Shown here one piece after another: positions 19,262 through 64,000 of a stretch of 64,000 nucleotides of DNA. The notes below the pieces were generated by a model. The model was not told the origin of the DNA. It did not search any database and was given only the letters and a program-made list of their open reading frames with translations. Position 1 is the first letter of the stretch, and each line of letters opens with the position of its first letter. The position numbers and the translations under genes were made by a program. Location of the stretch: positions 67,582,001-67,646,000 of the forward strand of contig CM059432.1 in the NCBI GenBank assembly GCA_030390025.1. The letters run 5' to 3'. Origin of the DNA: Squalus acanthias (Eukaryota).

Positions 19262-20901
19262 TGTAAGGGGTTTCAAACGGTACTGATGCGAGGTTAGGCC
19301 TTCGTTGCCTATACTATTGCTTGCTCTGGTCTCCGGCCAGCCTTTTTGCAATAAGCACCTGTGAGTGGTTCGACCCACTCGCCCTTACGGTTCTGACACC
19401 TGGACTTAGATGCAAGGAGCAGTAATGCAGAGAAAAACTCAAATAGACCCGGTTGAATAGCACGAAATGAAAATCTTTATTGCATGGCGTCTAAAATCAT
19501 GAAATACATGTCATAGGCGCAAATCAAAGAGAGTACAAGTATACACACGTTCATAAAGCTTGGTCTATGGAAATGGGGAACACACGGCACATCGTAAAAC
19601 GGGGTACACATTATACCTTAACCTTATAAAAACCACCCTCCCTTTAATAATACCTAAACTACGTCTGGATTTGTAGGATCGTAAAACATGCTCACCACTC
19701 GTTTTACTTCGGAGATTTTAAAGTGAGGCACTCAGCTCGTTTCGCTGCAGCGCCTGACTGTCACGTGTTTGGAAGGGTTTCTGCACCCCACTTGTTTACT
19801 TTTGCTGCTGCGACAAGCAGGCCAGACTCTCTGTGGTCATGAAGCAGTCGATGGACTCAAACCGTCTTAAAATTCAAAGAAGGGTCTTCCTGTGCTGCGG
19901 CACATGTAGAAGTCGGTAGAACTCAAAGGAAAGCTCTTTTAGTTATATTTTCGGGCGCGGTCGGGGTTTACTGACCGTGGCGGTACGTGGAATTTCTTCT
20001 CGTCTTCTTCTCTTCTCGTCTTCTCGGGCCTCCGGGTCCAGACACCATTTACCGACACTCAGGATGGTGTACCCTGTTACTTGCCCTTGTCGAGGCGGCT
20101 CGTTCCGATTGAGCTCCACCCAACACTCGAATAACCGACCAGTACGGCTAAGAGTCAGGAGTCAACAGAGTCCAGAGAGAAAATCAAAAGTCCAAAAGTC
20201 AAGCCAGTTCGGGAAGAGCTTCAGCAAGGGTCAGCAGAGAGATAAGAGGAATAAGAGATCGATGGACATTTGTTCTCTATAGTTATACTGATGTGTCCGC
20301 TTTATCTCCCGCTCAAATCTAAATGTTTATCCTTTGTGTGATTTTGGCACTTAAAATCCCAGCATGGGGCGATTATCTTCTTAACGGGTTTCGGTAGCAC
20401 CTGAAACTGGCCAACTATCCGTTAATGTTTTCCCCATTGTAGAGCCAGCCAGGATGTGTATGAATCGTCTCCTCGACTGGTTTTGGGGCCCCCCGAATAC
20501 TTGCTTAATCACCCGCCAATGTCTCTCTCATTGTTGAGCCGGGGGGGTATTTGTGTATTGATGTGTCTGGATGGGCCTTCGATTGCCCAGTTCAATGATC
20601 CTTACTGTGCATAGGAAAATGATTCCAGCACTTATATCATTGCTATTGTTCACAATGCAAACGGGTTGCATCCTGTCTTTATCAATGTTTACCGAGTATG
20701 ATCCAATCTCATATTGAATGTATATTCGACGCCATCTTGTCTGCCCACTGTGTTTCTGGAAGCTTCTGCCACAATGCGTGGCAGCCATTTTACAGGCTTC
20801 TGTGTCCTTTATTATCAGGACAGCATTTCGTTTAATAAAACTGATCAATTGAATCTGCTTCTCTCATGTTATTTTGAATCGCGATAATTGCGAACTCTAC
20901 A
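19262..20901 (-). mobile_element. Solo LTR (1640 bp), diverged relative of the provirus LTR at 50847
   Basis: TG...CA ends; TSD GGAG (19258-19261 / 20902-20905); reverse complement begins tgtagagttcgcaattatcgcgatt versus tgtagaattcgcaatatatcgcgattt; shared aataaagatttt, gagtggtgagcatg, cacggtcagtaaa. Confidence 0.92.
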
Positions 20902-49330: not shown

Positions 49331-50846
49331 TATAGACCAACCAAATCCCCATGAAAATACACAAACATATACAAACATGGATGTTGCAAATAGAGAATAT
49401 AGGGCCAAGGGACTGACTGGCCTACCCCTCTTCCTGTGTTTCTATGATTTGCTGAATGCCACTCTTGGCATGGAGCCTCACCCACCAAGAGCACAAATTG
49501 AAAATCACAGGCCTGCACCCCTTGATTTTCCATCCACTCAAATTAATTTAGTGGGCTGAACTGTATAGTGTACACTGTTTACTGCATTACAAAACTGTTG
49601 TTTAAGAAGTTAGAATATAAAGGTCAGTAAATGTTCACTGCTTGAAAGTGATTCTGCCTGAAATTGATATATGGAGTAATTTTCAAATGAATGAGCTGAA
49701 AATCAAAGGCATTACACACCCAGTTTTCCAATATGTGTTCCCAATGGATGAAGCTCTGCATTGTGAGTGCAGAAGATGGAAATTTGCCCCATTGGTTGCT
49801 TTCAAGAACAGCTGAATACTGTTTGGAACAATATGATCTCAAAGCTGACAACATTAGACAAATTCCTAGGTGTGAGATTTTCATTCATGATTTGTGTACC
49901 CGAGGCATTGAACTGTGCCAAAGAGCAAAAATAATTAAAAGCAGCAAGTTGCATCCATCAGATGGGCTCAGGAGACACCAAATGGCATTAGTATATTATT
50001 TTTCATGTTTCTCTTTTCTTACCTGAGGGCGAGCTTGCACATTGAGCCTAGCTGACAGGAACTTAAAGGGCTTAGCTGGTCATTTAAAGGGCAGAATTCT
50101 TGCCTGCAACATAATGGAAAGGGTTCAGAGCTGCAAAGTTCCTGGAAAATGGGGGGTTCTTCATCCATGTAAGCCCAGATTCACAGATGCTGCACTTGAA
50201 GTCATGCTGGATGAGTCGAAGAAAAGGAGGCTGTTCTCTTTGGCAATGAAGGTTACTCTGTCCAGAAAAGAGTGGGCCAACAGCAGGAGATAGCTGACAG
50301 GGTGTTTCCATTAACAACTAGTTTACACATGTATGCATATGACAAAGTGTTTCTCCTTATTGCTGCCCCATCCAAAATACTCATACAACATTACAGCCCT
50401 TTGAATGCTTACCATGCATGGACACATTGCAGCAGGGCACAAATGCAAGCTGCAAATTACAATTGAATTCTTAAAGGAGCTTTACATAGCAAATTCTTAC
50501 AGCACAGTCCAGCTCTAGGTTCATTCAATGTTACACATGATGGGCTATATGATGCACACTTATACATCACTCTATTTATTCCTTAAACTTGCAACATCTC
50601 AAGAGGACTTGGTGAACAAGCTGACACATAAGAGAAGGAAAAAGACCTGGGGGGGGAAATTCAGTTGCTTTGCACCTCCCGTTAGCGCCCTCTTAGGGCG
50701 CTAACGGGGCACAAAGCAACTAGTGCCCGGGCGCGGCACTGCCAACGCCTCCCGCGAAATTCAGTGGGAGGTTAGTGGCGGCGGTAACCATTAGCGCCCC
50801 ACAGCGCTGCGCCACCGGCGATGATGTCATCGCTGTGTGCAGCGCC

Positions 50847-52559
50847 TGTAGAATTCGCAATATATCGCGATTTGATTAATAAGGAGAAAACACAAAGTTT
50901 CGTTCAAACAGCTTTTATTTCAGCAGAATGCTGTCAGGTTTAAATTGGACACAAGCAGCCTGTAAAATGGCCGCCGCACCTCGTGACAGAACATTCTAGA
51001 CTTTTCAACAGGCAGACAAGATGGCGTTCCATTAAACATTTGTACAAGATCGATAACGATTCAGCACAGTGAAGATAATACACGAGACATTATGGGTTTA
51101 CAGTATAAACATAGATACTGGAATCGGTCTCCCAGGTACAAAGGAAAGCCATTGTACCGAGTAATCAAGGGCCCATCCAAAGGACATTAATATGTAAACT
51201 CCCAACGACTCTACGATGAGAGAGCCGTTAGCAGGTAGTTATACAGGACACTTGGAAGCCCCAAACCCCTCCAGGGAGAACACCGACCGATTTAACAATG
51301 GGAGAAGTATTAACAGGTACTCAAACATTCATGAGTAGCCCGAAACCCATTAAGAACGGAGATCACCCATACAAGACATTTGGGCGCCAAACCCTAAACA
51401 AAAGAATGGACATTATAGTTGGGCGGGAAACGGAAGATTTTTGCACTATAATTGCAGGCCCCAAACCGTCCACTCGCTCTCTTGTCTCTTGCCTTTTGCC
51501 TCGTGCTCTTGTTCGTGCTCCTGCGTTCGCTCGATTGCTCCTGTGTTTTATCCGGTCGATTCGTAACCTCGTGGCTGCTCCTGTGTACTCGTAGTTGGGT
51601 TTCTGCGTGCCTGTTGCCTCTTCTGAAAAGACTGTTGAACTTTCTGATCCGTTCGGATCTACCTCGTGTCGCGTAACGAAGACCTATGTTGGTAACTGGC
51701 AGCGGAACCAAAGGCCCGAGATGAGATGAGATGAGATGAGAGGAGAAGAGAAGAAGACCATATCCATCGCCACGGTCAGTAAATCCCGACCGCGCCTGTA
51801 GGTCGATCAGCCAAGTTTTCTCGCCAGGAAGTTTTCCTCTTTAAACTTCTAAGGAGGTTGGAACGTGGAAAACACATCGTATCAATGATATTGACAACGG
51901 TGCTCCAAGACTAATCTGTGAAACCCACCAACAGAGGTCTTCATCACAGCAGACGGTCCAGCCTACTAGCCGGAGCAGCAGAAGCAAGTAAACAAGTGGG
52001 ACCAGGAGATCTCCTGACCGACACGTGGGTGCTGCGGTGAAAAACATCCGATCAGCTATTCGGAATTTCTCCGAGTTATCACGAGTGGTGAGCATGAGTC
52101 TCGAGATCCTACGAAGCTAGTTTAGGATAGATATTGATAGGGGAGGGTTTAAAGATTAAGGATATTTGTAATGTGTGCCCCTATTTACGTTGTGCCGTTC
52201 GTTCCTCGTTTCCCTAAGATCGACTATATAACCGTTTGTAAGATTGTACTGTCATTAATCTGTGCTTATGACATGTATTTCATAATTTTAAGTATCATGC
52301 AATAAAGATTTTCCATTTCGTACCATTCAAACCAAGTCTACATGAGTTTTATCTCCATTACTGCTCTCGCATCTAAGTCCAGTGTCTAGAACCGTAAGGG
52401 AGAGTGATTCGAACCACTCACAGGTGTGTCTAGTGTTCCCAGACTGGCTGGAGACCAGAACAGGCAACCAGGCCTAGACCCACACTGACATACAGGCTGC
52501 ACAGAGCCGCGTGAATCTCACAGGCTACGAGACACGCAGGGTCAGGGGAATCCCTTACA
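50847..52559 (+). repeat. 5' LTR (1713 bp)
   Basis: TGTAG...TTACA; AATAAA 52301-52306; candidate TATA at ~51446; (GAGAT)n at ~51718-51740. Confidence 0.97.
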
Positions 52560-52563
52560 GAAA

Positions 52564-54375
52564 ATGGCGACCGCGGCAGGACACTGGCAGCGAGAGGGTA
52601 GTGTGTTAGATTTTGGAATGACTGTACGAAATGTTATGCAGGAAAAGATAGCGGATTATGTGTTTGGAAAGGTTAATCTAACTAAGAAGTGGATAAGTGA
52701 ATTGTTAGCGGATAAGAGCCCACTAGAGGCAGCTGAAAGGTGGACAGATAGTAAGGAACATAAAAAGGCAGTTGAGAAAGCAGTCTGGCTTATGTGCTAC
52801 AAAAGGCAGGTTCAGATTTCAAACCAGACCATTACAGCGCTAACAGCTCGAATCAGCCATTTAGAGGGAGAAATGGAGGAGAAGGTTTCTGGAGGGGAGG
52901 TGCTCATTAAGAATTTAAATGAGTTACACCAGGAAAGCCAGGAAGTCTCCAGTCACCTTAAAACAAGGATAGAGTATCTCGAGTGCCAGGTCACTGAAGC
53001 AAAATTGAACGAGAGTAGGTTAAAGGAAAGATGTAACCGCCAAGCTGCCCAGATAAGAACTCAAGAAGAGAGCTTAATGGGGGTTAGGTCGGCGTATAAG
53101 TTGGCCCTTGAGGATAAGTTTCAGGGAGCCGACCATAGCGCCTGCCAAAGGGAGATAGAGAGCCTCAAAAAGGCCGTGAATAATGCGAACGGCATGGTGT
53201 GCCTTATCAATCCGTCGGCGCACCAGCCGCTAGTAAATGAGAGATTTAGAAAATCCCCACCAAGTAAAGCAGAAGAAGTAGTAGCCACTGCGCCCTCCGC
53301 GCCACCCAGCTATTCAGAAACCTGGGTTAGGGAGGAAGCAATGGAAGAAACAAAAAAGCCCATTGAAAAGGAAGAAGAAAAGGGATCGTTGTATCCAGTA
53401 ACGGGTATTAAAAGGGGCCCAAGCAGAAACGGTGGGGAAGAACCGGGGGATCTCCTCGGACAGCTGGTGTTGCCTCACAGTTCACATCAGCTGAGAGCTA
53501 TGATAAACCACGTACGGAAGCTGACCGAGATAGACGACCCTTCCGTACATTTCAGGGAAGTTGAGCAAGCCGCAGCCATTAACGGCTGCGATGATGGGGA
53601 GACAGCAAAAATGCTGCTGTTCTCATTAGACAGCTCGGTCCTTCAGTGTCTCTCAGGCGAGAGCAAGAGGGGAAACAAAAGTTATGAGGAATTAAAAAAT
53701 GAGGTCCTAGAAGTAGTGGGGGCGAACGACGGAGGTCCGTTTGCTAGAGTGGGACAGACAGTGCAGATGGAGGGAGAACCCCCGAAGGTTTTTGCCGACA
53801 GGCTGTGGCCAGTATATGAGCGCAGCTGTCTAGGTGCGCCCGAGCGCGAAGATGTGGAAGGCGCCGCTCTAACCCATTGGCTTAGGTGCATAATAGCCAA
53901 CAGTTTACCAGCCGTTAGAGAGCAGGCAAAAGCCTGGTTCGATCCCAATGACCTCAACCTTACGGAAGAGTCGGTCTTGAATCGACTCACGTTAGGTTAT
54001 CGTAACATAAGGGGTATGACGACACGTCCCTTTAAGGGAAGAGTACATGAGGTACGACCCGCAGCCCCGGCTCAAAGAGAGTGGCATCAGGAGGGTAATC
54101 GCGCCCCACAGGCAAGTAATGCCTGTTACGGGTGTGGGAAGACAGGGCACTGGCGCAAGCACTGCAGGAACCCTTGGAAGGATTCCAAGGATAAAAATCC
54201 CGCGGTCCGAGCCCAGGCGCCTGTCCCGGCTAAGGAAGCCAAGGCACCCACCCCTCCCGACGACCTCGAAGCAGTGTTAGGAGCCATGCGCAAGCTGGTT
54301 TTGAATGCGCGTGGACAGGTGGCGGTCGCAACCGGCCCCGTAGGTGCCGCAGGACCGTCTAATAGTGCCCCATGA
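52564..54375 (+). CDS. gag: Gag polyprotein (coiled coil, late domains, capsid-like region, CCHC zinc knuckle), 603 aa
   Basis: Intact ORF directly after the LTR; CYGCGKTGHWRKHC (54124-54165); PSAPPSY (53293-53313); QMEGEPPKVFADRL resembles a capsid MHR. Start could be a downstream Met. Confidence 0.92.
   Translation: MATAAGHWQREGSVLDFGMTVRNVMQEKIADYVFGKVNLTKKWISELLADKSPLEAAERWTDSKEHKKAVEKAVWLMCYKRQVQISNQTITALTARISHLEGEMEEKVSGGEVLIKNLNELHQESQEVSSHLKTRIEYLECQVTEAKLNESRLKERCNRQAAQIRTQEESLMGVRSAYKLALEDKFQGADHSACQREIESLKKAVNNANGMVCLINPSAHQPLVNERFRKSPPSKAEEVVATAPSAPPSYSETWVREEAMEETKKPIEKEEEKGSLYPVTGIKRGPSRNGGEEPGDLLGQLVLPHSSHQLRAMINHVRKLTEIDDPSVHFREVEQAAAINGCDDGETAKMLLFSLDSSVLQCLSGESKRGNKSYEELKNEVLEVVGANDGGPFARVGQTVQMEGEPPKVFADRLWPVYERSCLGAPEREDVEGAALTHWLRCIIANSLPAVREQAKAWFDPNDLNLTEESVLNRLTLGYRNIRGMTTRPFKGRVHEVRPAAPAQREWHQEGNRAPQASNACYGCGKTGHWRKHCRNPWKDSKDKNPAVRAQAPVPAKEAKAPTPPDDLEAVLGAMRKLVLNARGQVAVATGPVGAAGPSNSAP
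52565..52582 (+). promoter_or_regulatory. Primer binding site, tRNA-Arg(TCG)
   Basis: tggcgaccgcggcaggac, 5 nt after the LTR; reverse complement of ...GTCCTGCCGCGGTCG-CCA, the vertebrate tRNA-Arg(TCG) 3' end as I recall it. Confidence 0.88.
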
Positions 54376-55557
54376 CTAGAGCCCACGCAGCCTGCCTACC
54401 TGTGTCCTTTTAAAAGACACGCACAGGAGGGGGTCTGCGGTGAGGAGGCCAGGTTAAAAGAGCAGGCCTTGCGGGAGGAGAACGCCCGCTTAATAGGGAA
54501 AATAGATGGGCTGGAAGGGCAGCTTAGAGAGCAGGCCCTGCGGGAGGAGAATGCCCGAGCAATGGGAAAGTTAGACGTGCTCAGGCTAGAAGGGCAGCTT
54601 AGAGAGATAAAAACAGCCTACAGGGTAGCCAGGAGCAGGGAGTATGAGGATTTAAAACAGGATAGAAATCTGCAGCCTCCAGCAGGTGAGATTTCACAGA
54701 AACAAGCAGGGGCGGTGGCCTGTCTTAAGGGAGGGGCCAGACCTGCGAGTGGGGAAGCACAGCCCCAGGTAGGACCACAAGGCACACAGGCAGGCATAGC
54801 AGCTTGCATCAGGGGAAGGGACATCCCGGACGATCATGCAGCGTTTTTCTGGAGTTGGGGGTTAGATGACGAAGAACCCAGGGTACCCTGGTCAGATGAG
54901 GATAGTGCAGATGAGCATAGTGATGATGACGGGTGGTTCCTGAGGAACGGTCTGGGGGGAATGGGGCCGATAGGTAGAGATCCACACGGGGTGGACACAC
55001 AAGCTGCAGGTCCCGAGGACAGGAGGGAGGAGCTAGAGGAGGCAGGGCCAGCCGCTATAGGAGCACAGAGAGTACCAATGTGGCTCCCAGAGATGTGGCC
55101 GCCCGCTTTGAACGTCCAGTCCTCAGGGGAGGCAGAGATCACGAGTGAAGGGCCGCCTGCTGGGCCGAGCAGGGCGGAGCCACGAACTGCCAGCCCCGAG
55201 GTTAGGGAGGCGGAGTCAGCGGAGGCGGAGCCGGCGACTGTGATGGAACCCCAGGTCATCCCGTTGGAGGTCTCGGAACCCGGTCCGTCCGTCACGGAAC
55301 CCCCGCCCATAGCAACTCCCCGTAGGTCAAGTAGAGAACCCCAGCCCAGGAGGATGTGGTCATGTCCCCAGACTGCCCCAAGGCGTAGACTTCAGGTTAA
55401 GATAACCCGGGTAGAGACAGGCCACATCGCAGCAGTAACAGGCTGCGGCAGATCAGAGGAAAGGGTCAGCGCAGCAACAGGCTGCGGCAGATCAGAGGGA
55501 AGGGTCAGTGCCCTCCCACCGTCGGGAAGAGCTCGCAGCAGCCTTCTCAGAATTTAA
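54376..55557 (+). CDS. ORF2 of unknown function in the pol position, in frame with gag; likely readthrough extension
   Basis: Open from the gag stop to 55557 with no early ATG; coiled-coil repeats then acidic/Pro-rich low complexity; no DTG/DSG, YxDD, HHCC or DDE motifs. Confidence 0.7.
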   Translation, partial: LEPTQPAYLCPFKRHAQEGVCGEEARLKEQALREENARLIGKIDGLEGQLREQALREENARAMGKLDVLRLEGQLREIKTAYRVARSREYEDLKQDRNLQPPAGEISQKQAGAVACLKGGARPASGEAQPQVGPQGTQAGIAACIRGRDIPDDHAAFFWSWGLDDEEPRVPWSDEDSADEHSDDDGWFLRNGLGGMGPIGRDPHGVDTQAAGPEDRREELEEAGPAAIGAQRVPMWLPEMWPPALNVQSSGEAEITSEGPPAGPSRAEPRTASPEVREAESAEAEPATVMEPQVIPLEVSEPGPSVTEPPPIATPRRSSREPQPRRMWSCPQTAPRRRLQVKITRVETGHIAAVTGCGRSEERVSAATGCGRSEGRVSALPPSGRARSSLLRI

Positions 55558-55868
55558 AGGGGCCGCCCTGAGAACGGGCGGCACTGTAAAGTTATTAGTT
55601 TAAGTTTTAAGTTTATAGTTCAAGGTTAAGTTTTAAGTTTATAGTTCAAGGTTAAGTTTGTAGTTTTAATAAGGCTAAGTTTGTAGTGTTTTTAACAGAA
55701 AACGATAAAATGATGGGAGTTTTAAGGCTAGGTTTAGAGGAAGTCTATTCAGCAAACGTTGAAGTTTACGTGAGGCGAGGTCAGGGGACCCGCTCACCCT
55801 TCACAAAAGCCAGAGACTTTTGCGAGGCTGGCTACCTCATTCTATCTGATCACAGGAACCAAGGAAGG

Positions 55869-58220
55869 ATGGAACGAATTCTAGTATTGCTCGTGGCAAT
55901 CGGATGTGGATTGGCCTATCGAGGCCACACCAAGGATGTCGTGGTGTTTGGATGTTCCGGGGACACGGCCCCCATCGCGGTGGATGGGACCGGAAGACGG
56001 AAGGCAGAGGGGACCAGCACCTATTTCCACAAGGGAAGGTGGCCAGGATGGCTGGGAACGAACTCAACGGAGTATTCCAGCACATCGGGGTTCGCCTACA
56101 AAGAGACTTCTTTAATGTGCCCCAAAGTAAGGATCATCGCACCCAGGATCAGCGTCACCGTCGGCAAACGGATTTGTTTGACCTGTAGTGGGGATGTCCC
56201 ATTGAGCCGATGGTGGTGGCTGCGAAAGCTGAGCAAAACTATGAGAAACTCTTCGGTCGAGTGGGAACGACTGGGTAATAATACCCATCGGACAATTACG
56301 GGGACAGACGGACAAGTGAAAGTCTGTTGGGACAAATGGTGGGAACCGGATGAGGGGATTTATGTATGTATGTGGGGGTCAAAGTACGTTTGCCCCAAAG
56401 GCATCTCCATATTTTTTATTAATCAGTGGCAGGATAACGGACAGGGGATGAGGTGGGATGCGAGCACCAGGGGGTGCGGAGCCCCATTCTCCCCGATCCC
56501 AGTAAATGCCACTGAACTCATTACGCGCCCACGCAAAGCCCCGCCCACGATTCCGGTGGTTCTAGCTGAGGAAGAAGGGTGCCCTAAAGCTAGTAAGGGA
56601 CCCGGGAACGGTTTGGTACTGGTCCCCACAGACCAGATACTATTTCAGGGGGTACATTACGCGGTGGCCTCGGTGATTTTAAATCTCACTGAGGTACGGT
56701 TACCAGAGTGGTGCCCCAAAAAGACGGAACAGTTGTATCAGGTCCTGTTGACCAAGATGTTCAGACAATTTTACGAGTTTGATTTTGCAGAAATTGATAA
56801 GACAAGTTTGTACACCGCACCGCAGGAAGTTTTGGATCAAGTAGGGAGGCAAAGAAGGGGTTTGGTGAACGATGCGTTCACTGCTTTTAACACAGGGACA
56901 TCTGTGGTCAACGCTCTAGACAGTGTGGAGCTGCAGACCCAGATTAATGGTTTAAAAACACAGTTAAAAGACATTCTAACAGATGAGAATAAAGTGGTAG
57001 GGTCAGGTCTGCACGAGGACCAAGCCATGACTCTCCATTTAAAGGAAATTATAGCAGAGCTGGAGAAACATGCGCGTACGGTAAATGCCCTGATCAGGGA
57101 AGATCGGAATGCATCCGATCAAGCTGCGCAGAACGAGGTGTGCGTGCTTTACGGGGCGTGGTTACTGGGCGAGGGCCGCAGTAATTTGGAGGATTTAAAA
57201 CAAGGTTTGGTTCCGTCCTGGATAAGTAACAAACACCTACGGGCGCTTCACCCTTTTCAGAACGCATTAAGTCCGTGCCAGCTCAGGCTAGCTTCAGAAG
57301 CTTACCCAGTCCCCGTGGACTGCGGACGTTCAAACCATACTATTATGGGAATAGTATTACGCATGCCGGTTTTGGGCAACACAGCAAAGCCCGCCCCGGT
57401 ATATCGGGTAGAGAACATTGGTGTCATTCAGGGGGGAGCCCACATTCGTTATGCAGCGGTTCCACCTTACGTCATCCGCTGGGAGCAAACGATGACAGGT
57501 ACAGATCTCTCTGGTTGTCGTGGCAGGGGAGCACACATAATACTGTGCCCCCAGCACTTGAATGCCTTTTTAACACCACAGTGCGGGTTCAGAACGGCTG
57601 GCGCCAAGTCCATGAATTGCACCATGGAGGCAATGGCACAAGATCATGTGCCTCCGCAGGTAGCATACATCGGGGGTGGAACATATTGTGTTACCACTGC
57701 AGCGCAACACTACCAGCATGGAAACCGTAGCCGGTGTCCGGTGAGTGACAGCAGTTTCTGTTTTAAACCCAGGGCTGAAGTTCAAGTAGCACAACAGCGA
57801 ATCATCCCAATCCCTGAACCATCCACTGTTCACCTCACAGTAAAAGAGAATTTCACCGACTTGCAGCGATTTGTCGCGCATTTTGGATACCTCATTCCCC
57901 CTCTCCCTGAGCATTTAACCAAACTTCTGAAAGCCGTCGCGGTATCACAGAAACATTTTTATACATTAGAGCAGAAAACTGTCGAAATAGGAACAGACAT
58001 TTTGGACATAGTGGTTCCACCGTGGTGGAATCTGTTCACCAATATTGAAGTGCCTTCATGGATCAGAATAGCCTCCCACATTTTAGTCGTCTGTCAAGTG
58101 TTTATTGTAGTGTACCTATTGGTCATACATTGTAAAAGAGACAAGCGCCTCACCAAGCATGAAAACACGGGAGAGTGGCGAGAACGTTACGTGCGCGTGC
58201 ACGATGAGAGCACCGTGTAA
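55869..58220 (+). CDS. env: Envelope / class I fusion glycoprotein, 783 aa, with N-terminal Ig-like domain
   Basis: Signal peptide MERILVLLVAIGCGLA; furin site RQRR 56847-56858; fusion peptide and heptads GLVNDAFTAFNTGTSVVNALDSVELQTQINGLKTQL; Cys-rich region; TM IASHILVVCQVFIVVYLLVI; about 10 NxS/T sequons. Frame is open from 55686. Confidence 0.92.
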   Translation: MERILVLLVAIGCGLAYRGHTKDVVVFGCSGDTAPIAVDGTGRRKAEGTSTYFHKGRWPGWLGTNSTEYSSTSGFAYKETSLMCPKVRIIAPRISVTVGKRICLTCSGDVPLSRWWWLRKLSKTMRNSSVEWERLGNNTHRTITGTDGQVKVCWDKWWEPDEGIYVCMWGSKYVCPKGISIFFINQWQDNGQGMRWDASTRGCGAPFSPIPVNATELITRPRKAPPTIPVVLAEEEGCPKASKGPGNGLVLVPTDQILFQGVHYAVASVILNLTEVRLPEWCPKKTEQLYQVLLTKMFRQFYEFDFAEIDKTSLYTAPQEVLDQVGRQRRGLVNDAFTAFNTGTSVVNALDSVELQTQINGLKTQLKDILTDENKVVGSGLHEDQAMTLHLKEIIAELEKHARTVNALIREDRNASDQAAQNEVCVLYGAWLLGEGRSNLEDLKQGLVPSWISNKHLRALHPFQNALSPCQLRLASEAYPVPVDCGRSNHTIMGIVLRMPVLGNTAKPAPVYRVENIGVIQGGAHIRYAAVPPYVIRWEQTMTGTDLSGCRGRGAHIILCPQHLNAFLTPQCGFRTAGAKSMNCTMEAMAQDHVPPQVAYIGGGTYCVTTAAQHYQHGNRSRCPVSDSSFCFKPRAEVQVAQQRIIPIPEPSTVHLTVKENFTDLQRFVAHFGYLIPPLPEHLTKLLKAVAVSQKHFYTLEQKTVEIGTDILDIVVPPWWNLFTNIEVPSWIRIASHILVVCQVFIVVYLLVIHCKRDKRLTKHENTGEWRERYVRVHDESTV

Positions 58221-58643: not shown

Positions 58644-60359
58644 TGTAGAATTCGCAATATATCGCGATTTGATTAATAAGGAGAAAACACAAAGTTTCGT
58701 TCAAACAGCTTTTATTTCAGCAGAATGCTGTCAGGTTTAAATTGGACACAAGCAGCCTGTAAAATGGCCGCCGCACCTCGTGACAGAACATTCTAGACTT
58801 TTCAACAGGCAGACAAGATGGCGTTCCATTAAAAACATTTGTACAAGATCAATAACGATTCAGCACAGTGAAGATAATACACGAGACATTATGGGTTTAC
58901 AGTATAAACATAGATACTGGAATCGGTCTCCCAGGTACAAAGGAAAGCCATTGTACCGAGTAATCAAGGGCCCATCCAAAGGACATTAATATGTAAACTC
59001 CCAACGACTCTACGATGAGAGAGCCGTTAGCAGGTAGTTATACAGGACACTTGGAAGCCCCAAACCCCTCCAGGGAGAACACCGACCGATTTAACAATGG
59101 GAGAAGTATTAACAGGTACTCAAACATTCATGAGTAGCCCGAAACCCATTAAGAAACGGAGATCACCCATACAAGACATTTGGGCGCCAAACCCTAAACA
59201 AAAGAATGGACATTATAGTTGGGCGGGAAACGGAAGATTTTTGCACTATAATTGCAGGCCCCAAACCGTCCACTCGCTCTCTTGTCTCTTGCCTCTTGCC
59301 TCGTGCTCTTGTTCGTGCTCCTGCGTTCGCTCGATTGCTCCTGTGTTTTATCCGGTCGATTCGTAACCTCGTGGCTGCTCCTGTGTACTCGTAGTTGGGC
59401 TTTCTGCGTGCCTGTTGCCTCTTTGAAAAGACTGTTGAACTTTCTGATCCGTTCGGATCTACCTCGTGTCGCGTAACGAAGACCTATGTTGGTAACTGGC
59501 AGCGGAACCAAAGGCCCGAGATGAGATGAGATGAGATGAGAGGAGAAGAGAAGAAGACCATATCCATCGCCACGGTCAGTAAATCCCGACCGCGCCTGTA
59601 GGTCGATCAGCCAAGTTTTCTCGCCAGGAAGTTTTCCTCTTTAAACTTCTAAGGAGGTTGGAACGTGGAAAACACATCGTATCAATGATATTGACAACGG
59701 TGCTCCAAGACTAATCTGTGAAACCCACCAACAGAGGTCTTCATCACAGCAGACGGTCCAGCCTACTAGCCGGAGCAGCAGAAGCAAGTAAACAAGTGGG
59801 ACCAGGAGATCTCCTGACCGACACGTGGGTGCTGCGGTGAAAAACATCCGATCAGCTATTCGGAATTTCTCCGAGTTATCACGAGTGGTGAGCATGAGTC
59901 TCGAGATCCTACGAAGCTAGTTTAGGATAGATATTGATAGGGGAGGGTTTAAAGATTAAGGATATTTGTAATGTGTGCCCCTATTTACGTTGTGCCGTTC
60001 GTTCCTCGTTTCCCTAAGATCGACTATATAACCGTTTGTAAGATTGTACTGTCATTAATCTGTGCTTATGACATGTATTTCATAATTTTAAGTATCATGC
60101 AATAAAGATTTTCCATTTCGTACCATTCAAACCAAGTCTACATGAGTTTTATCTCCATTACTGCTCTCGCATCTAAGTCCAGTGTCTAGAACCGTAAGGG
60201 AGAGTGATTCGAACCACTCACAGGTGTGTCTAGTGTTCCCAGACTGGCTGGAGACCAGAACAGGCAACCAGGCCTAGACCCACACTGACATACAGGCTGC
60301 ACAGAGCCGCGTGAATCTCACAGGCTACGAGACACGCAGGGTCAGGGAAATCCCTTACA
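58644..60359 (+). repeat. 3' LTR (1716 bp)
   Basis: By eye about 3 substitutions and 4 small indels versus the 5' LTR; AATAAA 60101-60106. Confidence 0.97.
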
Positions 60360-61999
60360 CGCCCCACTCGCACCCCAGCCACAATCTTCAGTAGCACCCC
60401 TGACTTACCGCAGAACGATTTGTCCAACGGGCTCAGGGGGGCCTACCTGCAGCTGGGGCGGTGCTAATTAAAGGCGAGGTGCCGGGCGGCCATTTTTGTT
60501 GATGGCCGCCTGCCAGCACCTGCCTTCGTTGCCGTCCCTGGCCTCCTGAGCACCCCCCCCCCCGCCCCCCATGATGTGCCGGCTGTGCTCCATGAGCCCA
60601 GCAATTCTCTTGAGTGCCGGGCTCTTTTGCCGGCACTCCGATCCCGGTGGCCCAGCTGGGCTCCGGGTCACGCTGCGCAAGGCCCCTCCCCTTTAAGAAG
60701 GGGAGGAAGGCCTGCAATACCACGGCACATAGCACCACAATATTCCTTCGCAGCGCCCCAAGAGGGAGGCGGGGCACTTCCAGTAGCGCCCCGCTTCCCT
60801 CTTGGGGCGCTACCGATGAATTTCGGCCGCGGGGACGCTAAAAGTAGCCACCCGATACACGCCTTCTGCAGTTGTCAGTGTTTTCGATCGGTGCTGCTGC
60901 AGGGGGCGGAAGTCAATTTCGGGTATGGGGCGCTACCGGGGTGATGCGCACGGCGATGACATCACAATTTCCGGGTGAAGGAGATCGAGGCGCATCACTG
61001 TAGCGCTGCCGCAAAACTCCCGCTGAATATGGCAGGAGTTGATGTCAGCGCCCCGCCCGGTCGCAAAGCCATTTGCGCCCCGTTAGTGACCCCCTGGGCT
61101 ATATGATGCATACCCAGGGGCACTAACGGGAGGCACAAAGGCACCCAATTTCACCCCCTGAGAACCTTGCTGGTTTTTATAACCAGAGGCAAATTTGTTG
61201 TACTGCAGGACTGAGCTGAGAAAAGCAGACTCCCCCATGAACAACTCATTTGCTTTGAAATCTAGGATAAAGCTGTTGCACTTTCTGTACAAAGACCATG
61301 CTACTGGTAGGCAACCAGTGGAGGAAATTTGTGCAGTGGGTGGAAAATAAGTGAGTTCCCAAATTTATGGTCCTCACCTGCAGAATTTTCACTTTTACCA
61401 GGAATTTCCAAGCTATTGTAATGCATGTTATAGAAAGATTGGTACCAAAATGAACATTTCAAATGACCATATTTAGTTGCTAGATGGCCCTATTGGGAAA
61501 GATATCAAGCCCTTTTTAAAAATTTTATAATTTGTACTTTACCATGTGTATCACACTGTCCAGTAATTTATAATTTATTCAGTAAGCTGGCCAGTAGCAA
61601 TATTTAATTATTGATTTCTTTTTTAATGATCCAATCCGAGCTATTAACACGCTGTCAACAAATTATAGAATTACTTGGCCAGTTGCTGATCTAAAAACTG
61701 CTAATGGCACATCAACCACTGTGACTTTAGTCTTTTTCTATTATAATTCTCATTTGGAGAGGTCATGCTCATGTAATTAGGTGCAACCTCCTTGTCAGAA
61801 AATGTCACACATGTTTTGGAATTTTGGTAATCCGTTTTAAAAAATAAGCTTTGTATAAAGATTCTAATTTCAATGGTAAGACTAGACTGGATATATCTTG
61901 CTTACTAATCGATCTCCTGAGACATTGCTCATAGGTAGTCAAGGCCAAGGGCACTTTTCAGATCTGGCAGGGTTAGAAGGTGGGTGATAATCAAACCAA

Positions 62000-63291: not shown

Positions 63292-64000
63292 TGTAAGGGT
63301 TTTTGTGTGTGACAACGCCTGTGGCTCTGTGCTCAGCCTGGGTGCTAGTGCGAGGTTAGGCCTTGTTGCCTGTTTTGGTCTCCAGCCAGTCTGGGAGCAC
63401 TAGACACCTGTGAGTGGTTCGACCCACTCGCCCTTACGGTTCTGACACTGGACTTAGATGCGAGAGCAATAATGGAGAGAAAACTCAGGTAGACCCGGTT
63501 GAATGGTACGAAATGGAAAATCTTTATTGCATATTATTCAAGATTACGAAATACATGTCATAAGCACAGATTAATGACAGGACAATCTTACACGCAGTTA
63601 TGTAACTAATTTTAGGGAAACGAGGAACGAACGACACATCGTAAATGGGGGCACACATTACAGTTATCCTTAAAACTTAAACCCTCCCCTATCAATACCT
63701 GCTCTAAACTAGATTTGTAGGATCGAGACTCATGCTCACCACTCGTGATAACTCGGAGAATTCCGAAAACTCTGCTCGGATGTTTTTAGCGCAGCACCTG
63801 ATCACCCACGTGTTGATCAGGGGTCTCTGTGCCCCACTTGTTTACTCGTTTCTGCTCCGGCTAGCAGGCTGGACCGTCTGCTGTCATGAAGATCTGTGTT
63901 GTCCTCGGAGTTCCGATACGACTCAAAAAATAGTCTTCCTGTGCCCTCGCCCCGATGCGATAAAACTCGAAGAATGGTCTTCCGATGCCAGTTCTGTAAA
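63292..64000 (-). mobile_element. LTR of the provirus family, running off the window end
   Basis: tgtaaggg start; reverse complement aligns to ~51900-52559; no PBS on its left flank, so it is a 3' or solo LTR. Confidence 0.93.

Follow-up and report, generated by a model that had tools for sequence, protein, structure and literature searches.

A 64,000-nucleotide stretch of the Squalus acanthias genome (contig CM059432.1; the whole stretch is referred to as the window) carries a 9.5-kb provirus-like element with the order long terminal repeat (LTR), gag, ORF2, env, LTR. ORF2 is a run of 393 open codons that continues the gag frame directly behind the gag stop, from 54376 to a TAA at 55555-55557. 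As judged by alignment with related elements, nothing in ORF2 is foreign: it consists of a protease-derived RNA cassette, part of the Gag coiled coil and the C-terminal tail of Pol. The alignments establish the ancestry of these segments, a common stop context, repeated in-frame re-joining and the existence of separate pol-less lineages with the same outline; as far as their sequences tell, three pol-less lineages converge on a readthrough signal followed by filler and tail. The element can tentatively be read as pol-less and helper-dependent, with a low-level Gag-ORF2 fusion, made by readthrough, that aids the spread of the element's own RNA; we hold this proposal at slightly less than even.

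An initial annotation of this DNA had described a gag gene closing in TGA-CTAG, 393 open codons without an early ATG and a 997-aa fusion, and coordinates and translation agree with that description. The readthrough product would comprise 603 + 1 + 393 = 997 aa, and the earliest in-frame ATG of ORF2 is codon 63 (54562). None of 5000 base shuffles of ORF2 was free of stops (mean 14.3 stops), and CTAG directly follows 2 of the 1183 TGA triplets on the + strand of the window. Related elements are assigned below to family A (that of the window), family B (an older relative with ~43% Gag identity; loci L065-L106) and family C (likewise older, and pol-less; loci L110-L142). The parts of gag and ORF2 are as follows.

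52564..54375, + strand: gag, 603 aa, closing in TGA
54373..54379, + strand: TGA-CTAG leaky-stop context (the TGA itself at 54373-54375)
54376..54445, + strand: protease-derived RNA, ORF2 codons 1-23, by alignment with the sister protease gene
54445..54654, + strand: tandem pair of part of the Gag N-terminal coiled coil of a family-B-like relative, codons 24-93
54655..54749, + strand: start of the Pol-tail segment, of family C origin, with the putative protease site GAVAC, codons 94-124
54750..55557, + strand: family A Pol C-terminal tail, codons 125-393, closing at the native Pol stop
55318..55359, + strand: basic RRSxRxPQP..W motif, kept in family A, B and C tails

Composition of ORF2

ORF2 had been called an unknown frame, for which Pol had been exchanged as for some other cargo. 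This view has to be given up. Alignment of ORF2 with the C-terminus of Pol from pol-bearing sister copies covers 274 of its 393 codons (261/274 residues identical, 95%; 98% nucleotide identity over 54750-55557), so that the Pol tail of the element's own family makes up ~70% of ORF2. What is left is likewise non-foreign: protease-derived RNA, the duplicated Gag coiled coil and a stretch of tail taken from a related family without pol. Pol residues ~12-1233 of the sisters are missing from the window element. In Pol, the tail sits after the integrase SH3-like domain; it is acidic and proline-rich and is predicted to be disordered (AlphaFold; predicted local distance difference test [pLDDT] mostly <50). 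Close to the tail's end lies a 39-nt tandem repeat (55432-55508) whose number of units differs among copies, pol-less and pol-bearing alike. The tail also contains a 185-aa antisense ORF (54834-55391, - strand). The antisense frame has 2-4 stops in the 12 copies examined, and this ORF probably arises as a side effect of tail codon use.

The 340 bases upstream of the tail are not present in the pol-bearing sisters. A pattern designed to leave out elements of the window's type picked up three family C loci (L110-L112), which match these bases in three blocks at 80-91%; the stretch ~54653-54739 has 84-91% nucleotide identity to the same loci. ORF2 codons 47-93 are similar to family B Gag residues 145-187 (20/43 identical), as are family C ORF2 residues 20-93 to family B Gag 145-218 (38-39/74); 0/300 shuffles were as good in either comparison. 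The family C ORF2 runs from Gag coil through a short piece resembling Gag near residue 320 to the Pol tail, and the coil of the window ORF2 is duplicated and shortened relative to this version. AlphaFold predicts a single long helix at ORF2 residues 20-97 (pLDDT 85-97 over residues 21-90). No closer gag donor of the coil was found with one exact pattern. Family C elements are pol-less, with an ORF2 of ~298 aa and a longer Gag coil copy. By sequence similarity the module of the window element likely came from this family, for which no pol-bearing partner was identified.

Over its first 70 bases, ORF2 runs colinear with the protease gene except for one extra base near +50, which is found in family C and in pol-less family A. 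Because of this extra base, the segment appears to be kept as RNA, with only the first codons still read as protease. The LEP...LCP peptide had been suggested to be a remnant of the pre-protease segment, and alignment with the pol-bearing sisters bears this out. The protease site GAVAC at the start of the tail is putative and is proposed from motif likeness.

The gag stop in pol-bearing and pol-less relatives

In the pol-bearing sisters, gag, TGA-CTAG and protease lie in a single frame and are followed by reverse transcriptase (RT), tether, RNase H, integrase and an SH3-like domain (Pfam). Outside pol these sisters are 97-98% identical to the window, and in three of the first four examined, TGA-CTAG is directly followed by 1494-1507 open Pol codons. 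The genome examined comprises 3.7 Gb, in which exact 22-mer junction counts gave 964 pol-less copies (window type) versus 1289 stop-then-protease copies. The main sample consisted of the first listed pattern matches on contig C1 (40/964 pol-less and 20/1289 pol-start copies; locus L198 was left out of the module count). A Pol frame of ~1500 codons is open in 11 of the 20 pol-start copies.

The earliest Met of sister Pol is codon 24, which lies inside the protease match (Pfam RVP, 17-111). Codons 1-23 show 2 non-synonymous versus 10 synonymous shared variants (omega 0.08) and so are under purifying selection. Since Pol has no usable start of its own and its first 23 codons are kept as protein, translation would enter Pol from upstream, and readthrough of the gag stop is the likely route to Gag-Pol. 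TGA-CTAG had been taken for an inherited Gag-Pol recoding site; it precedes the protease in 20/20 sampled pol-start copies, and readthrough is likely to be the inherited Gag-Pol mechanism of the sisters.

The stop context is shared widely. Pol-less family A copies have TGA-CTAG (36/40), TGA-CTGG (3/40) or TAA-CTAG (1/40), and all 30 family C copies have TGA-CTGG. Among 30 family B loci, gag ends in TGA-C in 23 (15 CTAG, 6 CTGG and 2 CGAG) and is frameshifted earlier in the other 7. At one pol-less family B locus (L102, C6:87449000-87457600), a sense codon at the gag stop produces an open Gag-ORF2 frame of 1004 aa; this was seen in a single copy and is likely a post-insertion change. Two hallmarks of programmed type II readthrough (UGA-CUA/CGG) are present, namely the UGA-CUA(G) context and an in-frame downstream gene without its own start. 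UGA-CUAG is reported to drive readthrough in mammalian reporters (PMC4132726), and alphaviruses are described as having UGA-CUA with a stem 8-9 nt downstream (PMC3159437).

A stem-loop is predicted at a comparable place, pairing ~+9..+30 with +46..+67 after the gag stop (inside 54376-54445). It ranks 3/933 among folded sequence windows in the window element and 11/981 in one pol-bearing copy, with high predicted pair probabilities in both. At one position of the stem the pol-bearing copy has an A-U pair where the window has G-C, and the pairs of the inner helix (alignment columns 27-33) can form in 13-15 of the 15 copies aligned. Support for the predicted structure is modest. Among pol-less as among pol-bearing family A copies, it is the commonest variant whose stem is predicted to be most stable (~-29 kcal/mol), the other variants ranging from -18 to -22 kcal/mol (pol-bearing) and from -23 to -29 kcal/mol (pol-less). 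The stem has possibly been strengthened in parallel in the two groups.

Frame conservation, selection and proposed model

The window element shows the hallmarks of pol-deleted endogenous retroviruses (ERVs): paired LTRs with a target-site duplication, no enzyme core and amplification of its form beside enzyme-bearing relatives. A comparison of the ORF2 frame across copies had been proposed in the initial annotation, and the native end is reached in 35/40 pol-less copies; gag has at least 600 open codons in 26/40. Joints between the 5' module and Pol fall into four types (six classes when coil copy numbers of 1-3 are distinguished), all of them in frame, and no out-of-frame junction class with at least two copies occurs among the 40 pol-less copies. 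The window's own junction type accounts for 9/40. Pol-less tails derive from different pol-bearing subfamilies. Some elements form head-to-tail arrays (contigs C430, C21 and C1; e.g. L007-L009) with a spacing of ~7.8 kb for pol-less and 11.1 kb for pol-bearing elements, which is consistent with shared LTRs.

Family B arrived at a similar arrangement with other material. Thirty gag-selected copies comprise 17 with a common multi-step pol deletion, 12 with continuous pol over the stretch examined and 1 with another deletion. The common derivative carries protease, RNase H and integrase scraps followed by the tail, in one frame in 13/17 copies, with an ORF2 of 381-406 aa.

Omega values for tail, coil, gag and env were recomputed on pattern-sampled copies. 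In pol-less copies, the shared-variant omega is 0.40 for gag (n=40) and 0.11 for env (38/40 copies); given this purifying selection, the Gag and Env proteins of pol-less copies seem to serve the spread of their own RNA. For the tail, no shared stops were found versus 8.6 expected (P 1.8e-4). The family C module has a shared omega of 0.36 versus 1.20 for singletons (Fisher p 0.007); the gag controls of this test and of the comparison of the module between families A and C are partly biased, as 7/37 pol-less and 21/21 pol-start loci were picked by protein identity. Tail amino acids evolve neutrally overall, apart from one short basic motif, RRSxRxPQP..W. This motif is kept in 33/36 pol-less and 11/11 pol-bearing family A copies, 12/14 family C copies and 3/4 family B copies scored. 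Together with the protease-site-like motif at the tail start, it persists across tails that are otherwise barely alignable between families; the functions proposed for the two motifs are putative. A literature search on the basic motif returned nothing relevant among the matches listed. In the divergent tails, 9/15 shared indels are in frame; this count includes paired alignment artefacts and was not used as evidence. Taken as sequence, the ORF2 frame looks to be under selection.

The proposed model is as follows. The pol-less RNA would be translated as in its parent, yielding mostly Gag and a few percent Gag-ORF2, with ribosomes passing UGA-CUAG at that level aided by the 3' stem-loop. The Gag-ORF2 fusion would enter particles with the element's own Gag. 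There, the helper's protease would cut the fusion at the kept sites and free the same disordered tail peptide that Pol carries, such that the usual proportion of tail would be preserved in particles rich in the satellite's own Gag. The likely payload would be the tail's short basic motif, and the filler upstream of it would be largely exchangeable. A broader reading, possible but on balance doubtful, is that the long disordered Pol tail is a protease-released accessory peptide, marked by the conserved basic motif, which satellites have repeatedly and independently kept making at Gag-Pol stoichiometry, via the retained RNA cassette and in-frame filler. The cassette is retained even out of the protease frame, with any in-frame filler between it and the tail.

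Several results weigh against a selected Gag-ORF2 product. The shared-variant omega of the tail is 1.01 in pol-less and 1.11 in pol-bearing copies, and no 15-codon window of the tail clearly stands out, the basic motif included. The coil omega of 0.62 in family A is not significant (p 0.14). Compared between families A and C, the module gives a non-significant omega of 0.54-0.81 without codons 1-11 and double-counted codons. A first estimate of strong protein-level selection from this comparison (omega 0.24-0.33, p 1e-4 to 2e-3) was not retained, since the same family C codons had entered two blocks and much of the signal came from codons 1-11. As pol-less copies acquire tails from pol-bearing subfamilies, the absence of tail stops may be inherited, and the in-frame non-homologous joints are therefore the better evidence. 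Stem-loop folding is ordinary in families B and C, covariation of the stem-loop is not above shuffles (37-41 of 500), and the protease cleavage sites are motif guesses.

The neutral tail would also be expected if readthrough were real and its product irrelevant. Ribosomes moving past the gag stop could shield the genomic RNA from nonsense-mediated decay (NMD) or route its packaging, with the open frame alone being selected. This explanation, the strongest of the alternatives but one that we consider rather unlikely, accounts for a frame that is kept while its amino acids drift (omega ~1; 0 vs 8.6 stops) and for filler that is wholly different between lineages (Gag coil versus protease, RNase H and integrase scraps); in addition, readthrough elements are reported to inhibit NMD in reporters (PMC5360307). 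However, ORF2 makes up ~1.2 kb of the 5.7 kb from gag stop to poly(A) signal, leaving a 3' region of 4.5 kb, and neither the persistence of the basic and protease-site-like motifs in barely alignable tails nor the amino-acid constraint in the family C module is expected of RNA protection alone. An omega near 1 is also compatible with a passive relic, in which young copies are refreshed by recombination with pol-bearing helpers and no selection acts in the pol-less lineages. The LTRs are 99.5% identical, the pol-less tails match contemporary pol-bearing subfamilies and homologous exchanges are in frame by default. We nevertheless judge a passive relic improbable. Around a dozen non-homologous joints or indels between stop and tail (families A, B and C; counted by eye) are all net in frame, which at 1/3 each has a chance of ~1e-6 if the joints are independent, a figure that microhomology and shared descent would weaken. 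Moreover, pol-less copies average 89-91% identity to the window in tail and gag, a diversity at odds with a lineage that is simply recent.

The remaining explanations dispense with readthrough or with Pol ancestry. Translation of ORF2 could begin at the internal ATG of codon 63, which has a purine at -3 and G at +4 and is present in most pol-less family A copies, or could use a spliced RNA. This is very improbable: no copy has the frame closed upstream of codon 63, stop context and RNA cassette have both been retained, and the corresponding place in the family B derivative is occupied by unrelated sequence. The contigs covering the element showed no spliced joint, though contigs cannot exclude one. 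Capture of a foreign cargo protein in place of Pol would be in keeping with the searches, in which ORF2 matched no Pfam family at threshold and no enzyme domain, had no homologue of similar length in the protein database and, for residues 120-393, had no match in the Atlas. This candidate has next to no probability left and is ruled out by the alignments, which trace each segment to gag or pol of the element's own lineage.

These elements are of wider interest. With their many copies, they offer a natural way to test why a seemingly useless pol remnant is still translated in defective retroelements, whether for a protein acting in cis or for RNA protection. They also add a UGA-CUAG readthrough site, by sequence, at a retroviral gag-pol junction, and the family A, B and C cassettes form a natural series that is a ready reporter set. 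No description of UGA-CUAG readthrough at a retroviral gag-pol junction was found in the literature searched (most subscription papers and Repbase-type entries lay outside it), and neither 'loki' nor 'UGA-CUAG' occurs in the available text of a 2026 review (PMC13517186).

Other features of the element and comparison with known systems

The features outside gag and ORF2 are listed here.

50843..50846 (left copy) and 60360-60363 (right copy): target-site duplication CGCC, 4 bp
50847..52559, + strand: 5' LTR (TG...CA), 99.5% identical to the 3' LTR
52565..52582, + strand: primer-binding-site-like stretch, by its position adjoining the LTR
55710..58220, + strand: env-like gene, with signal peptide from 55869, RQRR site and C-terminal hydrophobic segment
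58632..58642, + strand: purine-rich tract, 5' of the 3' LTR
58644..60359, + strand: 3' LTR, with AATAAA at 60101

By its structure the element is a young provirus-like insertion; between its two LTRs of ~1.71 kb there are 3 mismatches and 4 gaps. Directly 3' of the LTR (52560-52582), the primer-binding-site-like stretch and the start codon of gag overlap. Older, diverged pieces of the same LTR lie on the - strand at 63323-63901 (86%) and 19317-19613 (79%). Gag has an N-terminal coiled region, a middle that appears capsid-like and one CCHC knuckle (Pfam zf-CCHC match weak, E 0.31); its nearest named relative is from a skate. The env translation, read by eye, contains an RQRR cleavage site and hydrophobic N- and C-terminal segments. 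A weak immunoglobulin-domain match (Pfam, E 0.61) lies at 56286-56525, with a V-set hint in one env homologue. The paramyxo/pneumovirus fusion protein domain PF00523 was matched neither by the window env nor by 9 of its 49 homologues. A PDB search with env gave no useful match, and its AlphaFold model has a pLDDT of 29.5.

The element is lokiretrovirus-like and may belong to the lokiretroviruses. It shares with lokiretroviruses a dual RNase H (in sister Pol, RT_RNaseH at 470-602 and RNase_H at 650-793), an RXKR-like env site, a Gag N-terminal coil and non-autonomous derivatives (PMC7947760; bioRxiv 2024.03.25.586437). The nearest named Pol matches are annotated as NYNRIN-like, from frogs and coelacanth. 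In a quick RT tree of 50 rows, which included no named lokiretrovirus, families A and B group with frog/coelacanth NYNRIN-like Pol (Shimodaira-Hasegawa-like approximate likelihood ratio test 87, unstarred), apart from gypsy-like and gamma/epsilon-like rows. Wang and Han reported lokiretroviruses in 0/3 cartilaginous-fish genomes (PMC7947760). The Pol tail of ~270 aa sets the present elements apart from four published lokiretroviruses, whose Pol C-termini end soon after the SH3-like part, and readthrough is unmentioned in the main text and searched portion of the supplement of the same study (PMC7947760). In the published Loki-Bsp sequence (1 of 24), gag ends in TGA-CTA and the annotated pol begins 47 nt further on, in a different frame; as published, Loki-Bsp neither supports nor excludes readthrough in lokiretroviruses. 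Zebrafish BHIKHARI elements are described as non-autonomous, gag-only lokiretrovirus relatives (bioRxiv 2024.03.25.586437). They differ from the window element in that Bik-2 is without pol and env, and Bik-1 is reported as a single Gag ORF.

The arrangement in the pol-bearing sisters resembles gamma- and epsilonretrovirus readthrough and the UGA cases of fish and frog ERVs, in which gag and pol likewise share one frame with a single stop and the protease lies just downstream (PMC13517186, PMC8278194). The contexts given for these retroviruses in section 4.1.2 of the review are UAG, UGAAGA, UGACGA, UGAAGU and UAGGGC (PMC13517186). Unlike gamma- and epsilonretroviruses, the elements described here have UGA-CUAG/CUGG, an alphavirus-like type II motif, and the predicted 3' element is a stem-loop rather than a pseudoknot. 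The context is the same as in alphavirus and mammalian UGA-CUA(G) readthrough, and the distance of 8-9 nt from the stop to the predicted stem is similar to the spacers of those systems (PMC3159437, PMC4132726); in contrast to them, readthrough is here a prediction from sequence, and covariation support is weak.

Among pol-deleted elements, the closest parallel is mouse intracisternal A-particle (IAP) 1-delta-1, for whose gag-pol fusion an action in cis has been reported (PMC6466679). Like that element, as described in the same source, the window element is a non-autonomous ERV in which a frame derived from gag-pol stays open across an internal deletion; it depends on enzymes in trans and has been strongly amplified (PMC6466679). 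Unlike IAP 1-delta-1, it has whole gag and env genes, and its pol remnant lies behind a kept leaky stop and would thus be expressed at a low level. A further difference is the duplicated Gag coil, together with an outline that arose from at least two independent deletions (families B and C/A).

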